Shown here one piece after another: positions 1,135 through 5,658 of a stretch of 31,444 nucleotides of DNA (its first letter is position 1; each line of letters starts with the position of its first letter). Both the position numbers and the translations under genes were made by a program. The notes under the pieces were generated by a model. The model worked only from the letters and a program-made list of their open reading frames with translations. It was not told the DNA's origin and made no database searches. Source of the stretch: Propionibacteriaceae bacterium (GTDB lineage: Bacteria; Actinomycetota; Actinomycetes; Propionibacteriales; Propionibacteriaceae); contig JAISGZ010000233.1 of the NCBI GenBank assembly GCA_031262845.1, positions 1 through 31,444 on the forward strand. Direction: 5' to 3'.

Positions 1135-1404
1135 TCACCGCCGGTCGTAATGAAACCGGCATTGGGCGATGACCAAGAAATCACCCTCAATCCGATAAAC
1201 CAACCGATGCTCGCCCGTGATCCGCCGCGACCAAGCACCATCGGCGGAGTATCGCAACTGTTCAGGCTTCCCCGTCCCCTCGGTCGGAGTCCGTCGCGCC
1301 TCCGTGATCAACCGGTTGATCTTGGCCACCGTTTTCCGGTCTTGCGCCTGCCACCACAGGTAATCGTCCCAACCATCATCCGTCCAGCCCAAGCGCAAAC
1401 TCAC
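1135..1404 (-). CDS. yoeB: Txe/YoeB family toxin
   Basis: WTDDGWDDYLWWQ, GTGKPEQLRY, WSRRITGEHRLVY and C-terminal CRFHY; 4-bp overlap with the antitoxin stop. Confidence 0.95.
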   Translation of the reverse strand: MSLRLGWTDDGWDDYLWWQAQDRKTVAKINRLITEARRTPTEGTGKPEQLRYSADGAWSRRITGEHRLVYRIEGDFLVIAQCRFHYDRR

Positions 1405-1652
1405 GGCTCCACCAACTCACGCTCAGTCCATTCCCCCCGATCAATAGCAGTCAGCGCCCGGCTCAAGCGCTCCGCGTTAGCCCGCGTCGACAACAGATGT
1501 GCCGTCTCTTCCAAAGCCTCGTATTCCTCCGCCGAAACCAAGACCGCATTCCCATGCTTCGACACGATCTCCACTGGTTGCCGGTCCTCGTTAACTCGCC
1601 GAATCAGCCCAAACAAATCTTGCCGAGCCGCGGTTGCTGTCATGGCCGTCAT
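1401..1652 (-). CDS. yefM: Phd/YefM family antitoxin, 83 aa
   Basis: MTAMTATAARQDLFGLIRRVNEDRQPVEIVSKHGNAVLVSAEEYEALEETAHLLS; GGAGG 6 nt upstream of ATG 1652, so the real start is downstream of the ORF-track start. Confidence 0.95.
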   Translation of the reverse strand: MTAMTATAARQDLFGLIRRVNEDRQPVEIVSKHGNAVLVSAEEYEALEETAHLLSTRANAERLSRALTAIDRGEWTERELVEP

Positions 1653-1675
1653 CACATACCTCCAAGACGTTATTA

Positions 1676-2105: not shown

Positions 2106-2247
2106 GCTGACCTCCTCCTCAACGGACGCGATATCTGTCTCATCCTCCATCGCCTGGATTAAACGATCATCGACGGCAGGACTGACCACCACGGCTGAGG
2201 CAAAACCTCATTGACCCTCCGGCCAGGCGACGCAGAGCGCCCCCGAT

Positions 2248-5196
2248 TCAGGAGTCAAGTTTCAAAGCCAGAGCCGGGCGTACCGCGCCAGAAGCCGATG
2301 CGACCGCAGAGCCGTACCAGAAATCATCGTCGTTCGCGTGGCCATCAGTGTAGACATAGGCCGAAAAGTCAGGAAAGTCACCTGGCGAACGCAACCACCA
2401 CCACCAGGGCTTACCATCATACCGATACATAATTCTAGATTCAGTTTTTTTAAATAATCTCACCACTTCGGCATTACTGAGTAAAAACACCGCATCCCGC
2501 GTTTTTGGCTGTTTTTTTTCTTTGTACTGGTATTGCTTTTTTGGGCGATTGTCTTGCTCAATCTCAGCCAGACAATCGGCACCAAGAGCGCCCGCCAAAC
2601 GCGGAGTCCAGTCCTCCGCCAACCAGTGACGCAACGAGGAATCCGCCCACGAAGCCCCAGCCCGATCCTCGTGATAAGCCCGGTGGTCAATGGGTCGGTC
2701 CGCCAGGAACACGGCGGCTCGCCGCGTGTCCCCCACTGTGCGAACATCCAGGTCAACACCGCGGTCTCCGCTGTGACCACTTAACTCTCCCTTCTTTGGC
2801 CCTGACATAGCAGGGGCCAATCGCCCCGTCTCATCCAGCACACCCAGGAACCACCAGACCCGCTCAGCCAGCACCACCCGATCACCTGGATCCTCACCCA
2901 CGTCACCAACCACGGCCCGTAGCTCTCCACGCCGGACCAACTCCAGCACCGCCGCCACACCACCCCGGTCATACTGACGTAACTCATCGACCGGCTCCGG
3001 ACAGTCCAACGACCTCGCCTGCGGCCAATTCTTCCCCCACCAGGCCGAATCCCGATAACTTAGGATCACGTCATTGACCACCCGAACCATCTGAATTGTC
3101 GAGTCGCTCAGACCAGCGGTCCCAGCCCACTCACCCGAGTACCACCGACCCATACGATCCACCAGCGCCTGATCACCGGCTTCCGCCAACGACTGGCCGA
3201 AGAAATCCCACGTCTCCGTACTTGGATCCCTCATCACCCACCGAGCAGGAGCATCGTCTCGCAGTGCCCGCAACAGATACTCCGACAAGAAGAACTCCTG
3301 CAACGACGTGTGGGAGAAGCGGAAGAAGCCCTCGTCAGCCGAGTCGTCCCGCCGCCGTAGGAACGTCGTGTTGCGCAGTTCCTCCTCCAACGTGTCAAAA
3401 CTGAGCCGGCCATACCGCCGTTCCCAATCCAGTTGCGCCGCCCACCAACGTTCGAACCAGTCCTCCAAATCATCGACGTGTAACTCGCCAGTCCCCGAGC
3501 GCCACAGCTCCGCCGCCATGTCCTCCGCCAACCGCAGCTTGTCCGGCCGTTTGACTTGGCTCTTGCCAACCTCTCGGCCGAGCCATTGACGGGTGAATTC
3601 CCGGTACAACATCACGCCATAAACCTTCTGGCCCTCAGCCCGCCAGCGCTGGATCTGCGGCACCGCCTGTACCAGGAAAGGCAGCGTCACCGGCCGCTTG
3701 GACAAATCCTTCAAGTCATAGACCTCTGTCAGCATCTGCCAGATGGCGGCGATGTCTTGCCCCGGCAGCGACTCGCTCAGATAATGCTCAATCTGCTCAT
3801 CACGCAGACCGAGCAGCAGCCGGGCTTCCATCTGATTGGGCCTCAGAGAGGCGAAAGCATGGCCAGTCAGCATCTCCCGCTGTTCGCGCAGCGTCCGGAA
3901 GAACTGGATCCGGGTGGACACCAGCATCTTGGCCGGACGCGCTGACTGGAGGCCCGGACGCCGGACGACTGACAGCAACCGGCTCGTGAACTCCCGCACG
4001 AGATCCTCATCATCCAGCTGGGACAAAACCTCGTCCAAACCGTCGAAGATGACGACCGCCCCCTCGTCGATCCACTGCCATAGTTGCTCAGCGGTAACAG
4101 TGACGCTGGGATCCCAACCCCAGCGGGCGCATTCGAGCATGACCTCCTCCACCGTCGGCAGGTGCGTCGCAGCCTGGCTCCCCGCCCCGGCGCCCGTCGC
4201 CACCAAGCCCCGCGCCAGCCGCAAATCGAAGTACAACCCCCATCGTCCTTCGTGTCCGGATTCCCGGCGGCGCCGCAATTCATTCTCGAAGCTCTGACAC
4301 GTCACCGTCTTGCCCATGCCGTACTCGCCCAGCAGGATGAACAGCGAACTGCGTTGGTCATCCTCTGCCCAGGCCAGCAGTTCCGGCACGATCAACCGGT
4401 CCTCCAAGTCACCAGCGGCGTCCCGTTGACCCGTTGCCTGGCGCGTCGGCCGGGGCTCTCCATACGAATCTTGCTCCACCGGTGTCGCCTGATTCTCCAA
4501 CTCGGTGTCGACCCGCTCGAGGTCTGGCCTCGCGGGTTTCGGCGGTTGTGTCGCCGCTGGGCAAGAGCAGGCCTCCTCCCACTCTCCCTGCCCCACCCCA
4601 GCCGCAGGATTGATCGTCAAAGCCATCGGCGGCATCTCGATACCCTCCCGTGATGACGTCCCGTCAAAGCCCTCCCGCAGGCTCGGCATGTAATCCAACG
4701 AGGTCTGACCGATGATCGGGGAAGAATCTTCAGCATCAGCCTTCAACCGTGGTGGCGGAACCATCGACCGCGCGGGAAGGCCCCCTGGCGCCGACGCCTC
4801 CGACGTCACCGTTGCCACCGGACTACCGGTCAATTCCGGTCGGCCACCACCACGCCTCCCCGGCTTGGCCTCTACCGGAGACTCCAGCCGAACGACCCGA
4901 AGCCAGCGCACAGGCTTAGTCGGCGTCTTCCGCGTCAACACCATCCGGATGGACAGGCCCATCTCCTCAGCCGCGTCATTGACGGCCCCCATCCGCCGGT
5001 ACAACTCAGTCTCCGCCGCCCCCGGCTTCAGCGGCGGCAGCAGCCGTTCCACAACCGTGTCGTAAGCGACCTTCCCCTCGTCGCCGAACAGAGCCACCAA
5101 TTCCAAAGCCTGACCTCGTCGATGCTCGGTGATACCAGTCAAACTGGCGATGGCAGCTGCCGCCTCTGCCTGGCTCAGCTCTTCTCCGTGACTCAT
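2248..5196 (-). CDS. NACHT-type STAND NTPase, 982 aa, with C-terminal DUF6273-like (C-type-lectin-like) domain
   Basis: Walker A GEYGMGKT (~4306-4329), Walker B VVIFDGLDE, LVSTR and FSHTSLQEFF; C-terminal SWADSSLRHWL, DAVFLLS, WWWWLRSPG and VRPAL; purine-rich RBS. Confidence 0.9.
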   Translation of the reverse strand: MSHGEELSQAEAAAAIASLTGITEHRRGQALELVALFGDEGKVAYDTVVERLLPPLKPGAAETELYRRMGAVNDAAEEMGLSIRMVLTRKTPTKPVRWLRVVRLESPVEAKPGRRGGGRPELTGSPVATVTSEASAPGGLPARSMVPPPRLKADAEDSSPIIGQTSLDYMPSLREGFDGTSSREGIEMPPMALTINPAAGVGQGEWEEACSCPAATQPPKPARPDLERVDTELENQATPVEQDSYGEPRPTRQATGQRDAAGDLEDRLIVPELLAWAEDDQRSSLFILLGEYGMGKTVTCQSFENELRRRRESGHEGRWGLYFDLRLARGLVATGAGAGSQAATHLPTVEEVMLECARWGWDPSVTVTAEQLWQWIDEGAVVIFDGLDEVLSQLDDEDLVREFTSRLLSVVRRPGLQSARPAKMLVSTRIQFFRTLREQREMLTGHAFASLRPNQMEARLLLGLRDEQIEHYLSESLPGQDIAAIWQMLTEVYDLKDLSKRPVTLPFLVQAVPQIQRWRAEGQKVYGVMLYREFTRQWLGREVGKSQVKRPDKLRLAEDMAAELWRSGTGELHVDDLEDWFERWWAAQLDWERRYGRLSFDTLEEELRNTTFLRRRDDSADEGFFRFSHTSLQEFFLSEYLLRALRDDAPARWVMRDPSTETWDFFGQSLAEAGDQALVDRMGRWYSGEWAGTAGLSDSTIQMVRVVNDVILSYRDSAWWGKNWPQARSLDCPEPVDELRQYDRGGVAAVLELVRRGELRAVVGDVGEDPGDRVVLAERVWWFLGVLDETGRLAPAMSGPKKGELSGHSGDRGVDLDVRTVGDTRRAAVFLADRPIDHRAYHEDRAGASWADSSLRHWLAEDWTPRLAGALGADCLAEIEQDNRPKKQYQYKEKKQPKTRDAVFLLSNAEVVRLFKKTESRIMYRYDGKPWWWWLRSPGDFPDFSAYVYTDGHANDDDFWYGSAVASASGAVRPALALKLDS

Positions 5197-5594
5197 GCCT
5201 CTCCCTTTCCCTGAGCGTCATCGCCTGACCCTGACCGTTTCCCAGCGAACCATGTTGTCAACCTGCCCGACAAAGGACGCTGGGCCTTCAAATTTGGTTG
5301 AGCAGCAACACCATCACCTCGCGACGGGAGGGCTTCACCAGAGCCGTGGCCTGTGAGTCCTCGAGTCAATTGGTTAAACGCTTTCATGTATCGCTTCACC
5401 GCCGCCTGATCCCCTCTTTTCTCAGCCTTTTTCGCCAGCCGTAAGAGATGTTTTCCATGAGCCCACAAAGCCAATATCTGGACAACCCTAATTCTCGGAG
5501 AGGGCCGCTGCGAGCGAACACCGAGAGTCAGCAAGAGAAGCCCGAAAAGAGGCCAAGCGTTGGCTAACCACTCCGTGATCTGATGATTCATCAT
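5193..5594 (-). CDS. Hypothetical 133-aa protein with one predicted N-terminal membrane anchor
   Basis: GGGGAGG RBS before ATG 5594; hydrophobic WLANAWPLFGLLLLTLGV; stop overlaps the NACHT start (ATGA). Confidence 0.7.
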   Translation of the reverse strand: MMNHQITEWLANAWPLFGLLLLTLGVRSQRPSPRIRVVQILALWAHGKHLLRLAKKAEKRGDQAAVKRYMKAFNQLTRGLTGHGSGEALPSRGDGVAAQPNLKAQRPLSGRLTTWFAGKRSGSGDDAQGKGEA

Positions 5595-5632
5595 GGCCGC
5601 CTCCCCTTCGAGAGCCTCATGCCAACGGCTCC

Positions 5633-5658
5633 ATATTACCACTAGTTGATACTAGTTG
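5633..5658 (-). promoter_or_regulatory. Putative extended -10 promoter of the membrane protein/NACHT operon, with upstream direct repeat
   Basis: TGGTAATAT on the minus strand (5641-5633); ACTAGTTG twice at 10-bp period (5641 and 5651). Confidence 0.45.

Follow-up and report, generated by a model that had tools for sequence, protein, structure and literature searches.

Diversity-generating retroelements (DGRs) of clade 5D diversify proteins that join a STAND/NACHT module to a C-type lectin (CLec) domain and that were predicted in PMC7159879 and described as putative antigen sensors in multicellular bacteria, among them Thiohalocapsa PB-PSB1 (PMC10907252). Some of these loci are incomplete and some of the targets are remote, a role as defence sensors was suggested for them, and DGR-diversified NACHT-lectin proteins were proposed, as a proposal only, to act as bacterial antigen sensors in a form of adaptive immunity (PMC10907252). 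DUF6273 is a CLec-like domain that is also a DGR target, with the variable region (VR) in its C-terminal part; it occurs in the tentaclins and Mtd-like proteins of gut phages, and phages that keep DUF6273 targets but lack a DGR have been reported (PMC10743442; bioRxiv 10.1101/2024.10.15.618418). In mtd of Bordetella phage BPP-1, the prototype, a CLec-fold gene ends in the VR and is closely followed by a short GC inverted repeat, and efficient retrohoming needs a stem structure (PMC3240598). Here we analyzed a stretch of 31,444 nucleotides (the window; contig JAISGZ010000233.1) from a termite-gut metagenome-assembled genome (MAG) of a Propionibacteriaceae bacterium, in which an initial annotation had read the 3' end of a NACHT gene as a DGR variable region, either a remote DGR target or a captured, frozen one.

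The locus has features of each of these systems. Like the targets of clade 5D, the window protein has a central NACHT/STAND NTPase and a C-terminal CLec-fold domain that contains the VR. Unlike it, the CLec domains of clade 5D are mostly of the formylglycine-generating enzyme (FGE)-sulfatase type and their hosts are Proteobacteria or Cyanobacteria, whereas the window gene carries DUF6273 and belongs to a Propionibacteriaceae genome in which no DGR was found. It shares with the gut-phage targets the Pfam domain, the CLec-like character and the C-terminal VR; however, those are receptor-binding or decoration proteins, whereas the window protein is a cytoplasmic-looking cellular NTPase that resembles NOD-like receptors (NLRs). 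With BPP-1 mtd it has in common a terminal VR in a CLec-fold gene and a short GC inverted repeat close behind, but mtd has an initiation of mutagenic homing (IMH) element and a hairpin/cruciform, whereas in the window two of the eight stem pairs are broken, one of them being a G-G mismatch and the other a G-T pair, and there is no cognate template repeat (TR) to define an IMH. DGR targets of the NACHT/STAND-CLec kind (PMC10907252, PMC7159879) and of the DUF6273 kind are thus already published. Among the papers that were searched, none links DGRs with Propionibacteriaceae.

The NNY-rich tail and the DGRs of the genus

Of the 30 codons that separate those for WWLRSPG (2380-2400) from those for GAVRPAL (2269-2289), 24 have a pyrimidine in the third position (NNY) and 11 have a T there (NNT), exactly the counts that the initial annotation had given. 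Across the whole gene the third codon position is a pyrimidine at a frequency of 0.42 and a T at 0.19, and the binomial probability of at least 24 in 30 is 2.6e-5. Because 14 of the 24 NNY codons are dictated by their amino acid (D, F, Y, N or H), the bias reflects which residues are used no less than which codons. It was present in every DUF6273 tail that we looked at in the genus, from 16 of 25 to 31 of 34 codons; the NNY bias is a mark of the family and is not special to the copy in the window.

We scanned 40 related genomes for DUF6273 and for the reverse transcriptase (RT) family RVT_1, and the two co-localise within the genus. Three same-genus genomes, G001, G009 and G013, carry complete DGRs whose VR is the same DUF6273 segment. 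When each locus was compared with itself, the mismatches between VR and TR fell on template adenines in 18 of 20 cases for the 145-bp pair of G009 (contig C43), in 9 of 10 for G001 (C10) and in 20 of 22 for G013 (C83). The G009 cassette consists of a bAvd-like gene and an RVT_1 RT around this template (Avd was checked in G009), and the RTs of all three genomes contain YMDD and the motif LPLGNQ(A/T)SQW, which we take to be a hallmark of DGR RTs. Relatives, then, do have templates and RTs, and homologues do differ in the adenine-specific way that the annotated reading calls for, with at least 90% of the mismatches at template adenines.

In a collection of 5.8 billion proteins, the homologue closest to the window protein (P0001) is the target protein of the G009 DGR (P0002), which is 57.6% identical over 767 aa; the same collection held no near-identical alleles for a comparison of variable regions, and the homologues returned by the protein search come from MAGs labelled Propionibacteriaceae. 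The G009 locus likewise encodes an NNH6-NACHT-DUF6273 protein, with the VR at the same codons and with TGAATC and a hairpin past the stop. Unlike the window copy, it has a PNP_UDP effector domain, a perfect 8-bp hairpin and a downstream Avd-TR-RT cassette, and the flanking genes are not syntenic.

We compared the tail of the window gene with this locus at the nucleotide level. By blastn, positions 2259-2404 match the G009 TR and positions 2221-2406 match the G009 VR, and the tail aligns with both with a single gap of one codon. All nine AAC codons of the template stand opposite NNY codons in the window (TTT, GAC, TTT, TAC, CAC, AAC, TTC, TAC and TCT). The residue is kept at 20 of the 22 template codons that are free of adenine, but at only 6 of the 20 that have an adenine at position 1 or 2. 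Counted by base, 22 of 33 template adenines (67%) are mismatched, versus 20 of 103 other positions (19%; Fisher p 1.5e-6). Because one in five of the non-adenine sites also differs, the G009 template is not the window VR's own template but rather a homologue of the one that wrote it. The homology to G009 does not end with the coding sequence; it passes the stop codon, continues through TGAATC and the hairpin, and then stops. These data, together with the DGRs of the same genus, support the annotated choice between a remote DGR target and a captured, frozen VR, and we are highly confident that the segment is, by descent, a variable region of the DGR type.

Two further features of this part of the gene were noticed. 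Positions 2378-2406 are identical in 28 of 29 bases to positions 9268-9296 of contig C2 of the same genome, over the codons for WWWLRSPG, in two NACHT-DUF6273 paralogues whose proteins are only about 35% identical. The identity includes all five synonymous sites (TTG CGT TCG CCA GGT), which are non-preferred codons in a genome of 62% GC; it may stem from gene conversion or from former templates that had the same 5' framework. At 2411-2550, immediately upstream of the VR, lies an AT-rich and Lys-rich patch with runs of A on the coding strand, where GC falls to 0.28 in one 60-nt bin. The homologues in G009 and on C2 show a milder dip (0.40-0.43) at the corresponding place, so that the patch is in part a family trait.

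The missing cassette, the hairpin and the effector domain

The genome that contains the window (G000, in which the window is contig C227) is a MAG of 1.73 Mb in 257 contigs. According to the initial annotation the window holds neither a TR nor an RT, and the same was found for the whole assembly. Templates were sought by blastn, by adenine-tolerant sliding scans of 45-173 nt, which accept any mismatch where the genome has A, and by a degenerate IUPAC pattern, which lets each non-A base of the VR be A with at most three mismatches; in this assembly, which is 79.6% complete, all of them returned only the VR itself. An anchored pattern and a degenerate pattern of the "each base or A" type had no match in JGI metagenome or GTDB contigs, although the source sample may be outside these collections. 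The assembly contains no PF00078 (RVT_1) candidate at E<=1 and no tblastn match at 1e-3 to three same-genus DGR RTs, and it contains no Avd match, either to PF22296 at E<=10 or by tblastn with three Avd homologues. When positions 1-2600 of the window were compared with the cassettes of G009, G001 and G013 by blastn and tblastn, only VR/TR matches and chance hits were obtained, and positions 1-2247 showed no similarity to Avd, RT or TR.

In G009 the Avd-TR-RT cassette begins directly past the hairpin, within 2.2 kb downstream of the gene. The corresponding 2.2 kb of the window are occupied by a YefM/YoeB toxin-antitoxin pair, where the relatives have Avd-TR-RT, and by a HATPase_c_4/HTH gene. 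Neither a deletion scar nor synteny with the G009 flanks was found; thus a cassette may have been lost here or gained in G009.

Two other contigs of the genome, C2 and C168, carry DUF6273 genes whose tails are also NNY-rich and which have no cassette. A single template that would serve all three tails was considered and rejected because both their frameworks and their lengths differ.

We also looked at the locus in sequencing data. One termite-gut metagenome, X1, is the sole public run with the locus, and two others, X2 and X3, are without the stretch. In X1 the VR falls within a single clean contig of 628 bp (1780-2407) that shows no alternative letters; these are Logan unitig-type contigs of 5-6x depth, which drop minor variants, so that low-level diversification would escape notice. 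The break of this contig at 2404-2407 falls on a TGG-repeat stretch common to the paralogue on C2 and not on heterogeneity of the VR.

The weak GC hairpin that the initial annotation had pointed out after the stop is real, with a folding energy of -5.2 kcal/mol as DNA, but its z is -0.35 and 68 of 200 shuffled sequences fold as well. Verified targets, both in cis and remote, have a perfect GC stem of 7-8 bp with a 3-nt loop directly after TGAATC; that of G009 has 8 bp (-11.8 kcal/mol, z -2.6) and that of G013 has 7 bp (-8.3 kcal/mol, z -2.2). The spacing is identical in the window and in G009, 24 nt past the end of the VR-TR homology in both.

The protein itself has lost a part that its relatives have. 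By BLASTP, residues 34-206 of the window protein correspond to residues 1-143 of P0002, and residues 218-292 to 405-480, so that residues 144-404 of P0002 are cleanly absent, with about 11 residues in their place. This interval includes the PNP_UDP_1 domain of P0002 (170-367). Effector domains are PNP_UDP_1 in P0002 and in a second relative, P0004, and SIR2_2 in a third, P0003, whereas Pfam finds only NNH6 and no effector domain in the N-terminal part of the window protein. By its domain content, the window protein is an effector-less derivative of the NNH6-NACHT-DUF6273 type.

Architecture, fold and neighbouring genes

The features of the gene and its surroundings are collected in Table 1. 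The NTPase core scores 25.6 bits as NPHP3_N (cut-off 24.8) and 20.2 bits as NACHT, under the cut-off of 26.7 for the latter family, and its Walker A (GMGKT) and Walker B (VVIFDGLDE) motifs are intact in the translation.

Table 1. Positions of the NACHT-DUF6273 gene, its parts and its neighbours in the window
Feature	Position	Strand	Basis
NLR-like gene, NNH6 + NACHT + DUF6273	2248..5196	(-)	Open reading frame and translation, 982 aa; Pfam
NNH6, NACHT N-terminal helical domain 6, aa 11-92	4921..5166	(-)	Pfam, 37.2 bits
Site of the PNP_UDP effector (about 260 aa) of relatives, missing here, aa 206-218	4543..4581	(-)	BLASTP
NACHT/NPHP3_N P-loop NTPase core, aa 271-440	3877..4386	(-)	Pfam
DUF6273 (PF19789), C-type-lectin-like sensor domain, aa 835-979	2260..2694	(-)	Pfam, 61.5 bits (cut-off 23.5), E 1.2e-16
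Variable-region homologue, aligns with the verified G009:C43 VR and TR	2264..2408	(-)	blastn and alignment
Hypervariable core, 30 codons, 24 NNY	2290..2379	(-)	Codon count
Degraded homologue of the DGR target hairpin, 3 nt past the stop, preceded by TGAATC	2226..2244	(-)	Position and spacing as in the G009 and G013 stems
YefM/YoeB type II toxin-antitoxin pair, directly downstream of the NACHT gene	1135..1670	(-)	Pfam: YoeB_toxin 9.2e-36, PhdYeFM_antitox 1.2e-15
Single-pass membrane protein, 149 aa; overlaps the NACHT start by ATGA	5193-5642		No Pfam family

We built an AlphaFold2 model of residues 800-982 from 22 homologues. The model has a predicted local distance difference test (pLDDT) score of 84.7, and its sole poorly predicted stretch falls within the variable core. 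The best structural match by VIA-align is the N-terminal domain of 9qa6, a Thomasclavelia IgA peptidase (Z 14.9), followed by the C-terminal domain of Legionella Lcl (Z 6.4), the Treponema denticola variable protein TvpA (Z 6.3) and dozens of C-type lectin domains with Z of 4.3-5.7; a VIA-align Z under 8 is weak if taken singly, but the list of matches is homogeneous. The model supports a predicted CLec-like fold for the DUF6273 tail, with the VR in its C-terminal loops. Thus the CLec-fold target named in the initial annotation agrees with the model, with the structural matches and with what is described for the domain (PMC10743442).

The small membrane protein that overlaps the start of the NACHT gene was considered as a conserved partner. 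It has no homologue in the loci of the relatives or elsewhere in the genome, and this candidate was rejected.

The present state of the tip

We propose that, in the lineage of this gene, an RT would have copied an AAY-rich template repeat while misreading its adenines, and that the resulting cDNA would have replaced the segment, leaving NNY codons amid fixed framework residues. The segment would supply the C-terminal, ligand-binding loops of a DUF6273 sensor domain that is fused to a NACHT NTPase. In the present genome the copy would have become orphaned, with no Avd-TR-RT cassette, a decayed targeting hairpin and a deleted effector domain, and its frozen tip would now evolve by ordinary mutation. 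It is because the cassette is absent, the hairpin decayed and the effector deleted that we regard the tip as most likely frozen, and we lean, with some reserve, to the conclusion that it is now orphaned and static. The copy, or an ancestor of it, appears to have been rewritten in the past and to be inactive at present. Between the two options of the initial annotation, the evidence leans to the frozen variable region and away from remote activity in a genome without TR, RT and Avd.

Several points weigh against a frozen tip. With 257 contigs and a completeness of 79.6%, the assembly does not prove that a TR and an RT are absent, and assembly and binning often miss DGR loci and mobile elements. 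The frame of 982 codons and the NTPase motifs are intact, suggesting that the gene is not an obvious pseudogene. The hairpin still has six Watson-Crick pairs and one G-T pair, and the 11 NNT codons could mirror AAT codons of an unseen cognate template. In addition, a remote target in G013 (contig C104) matches the TR of that genome, adenines accounting for 21 of the 26 mismatches and other bases for 5.

These points bear on the possibility that the gene is an active remote (trans) target, in which a cognate DGR still rewrites the tip by homing via the 3' end of the VR and the imperfect hairpin; such a DGR would lie in the one fifth of the genome that was not assembled, or on a phage or plasmid that escaped binning. 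We judge this possible but unlikely. The G013 copy is a precedent for a template-matched remote DUF6273 target, trans diversification of NACHT-CLec targets was reported in Thiohalocapsa (PMC10907252), and the window gene is intact, in a genome of limited completeness, with TGAATC and the hairpin kept at the exact spacing of the verified targets; however, the 1.73 Mb yielded neither an RT nor an Avd nor a TR, the three different DUF6273 frameworks would need several templates, none of which was found, and the window hairpin is no better than shuffled sequence, whereas each verified target that was checked has a perfect stem of 7-8 bp. A broader form of this possibility is that termite-gut Propionibacteriaceae run trans-acting DGRs that rewrite the DUF6273 tips of a repertoire of NLR-like NACHT proteins (with PNP_UDP, SIR2 or no effector), the window copy being a live remote target whose cassette is missing from the MAG. 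This seems to us doubtful, and a little more so than remote activity as such. If true, it would amount to a hypermutating immune-receptor set in Actinobacteria, in a phylum and a sensor-domain subtype for which no such set is known to have been described.

That there was no DGR history at all, the NNY bias coming from the D/Y/F/N/S/G-rich composition of lectin loops and the resemblance to a VR being convergent, is very improbable: the amino-acid-forced codons and the presence of the bias in all DUF6273 tails of the genus, even those that match no template, would fit it, but the division into variable and invariant codons matches, one for one, the division of a verified template into codons with and without adenine, the non-coding homology to a verified target runs past the stop through the DGR targeting element, and the nearest homologue in the protein collection is itself a verified DGR target.

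A frozen tip would have company within the genus. The DUF6273 copies of G013 that have no cassette differ from the template of that genome at 5 to 18 positions other than adenines (16 on contig C188 and 18 on C125), so that copies that have drifted beyond the control of a template are common. The remote target on C104 (L022 1815-1935) lies on an open reading frame of 942 aa and retains a perfect 7-bp hairpin, and it seems to stand midway between live targets and retired ones.

Other genomes gave two side observations. In G004, a genome of the same genus, contig C62 (L012, L017, L021, L024, L027) carries at least 12 DUF6273 genes in a tandem array, and each of them has an NNY-rich tail. The single G004 template that was fetched (G004:C43:73-210) is matched by none of them, and its framework instead resembles P0004 and P0006. 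In G022, which belongs to the same family but to another genus, thirteen RVT_1 matches are spread over many short contigs, and these probably represent an expansion of group II introns or retrons.

Taken alone, the copy in the window is an ordinary relic left by a mechanism that is already published. Together with its same-genus relatives, however, it extends the NACHT-lectin DGR pattern to termite-gut Actinobacteria and to the DUF6273 subtype, a domain whose DGR targets described to date come mainly from gut phages. The genus offers a natural series, from a cis target through a template-matched remote target to orphans with decayed hairpins, which is useful for understanding how targets are recruited and retired.

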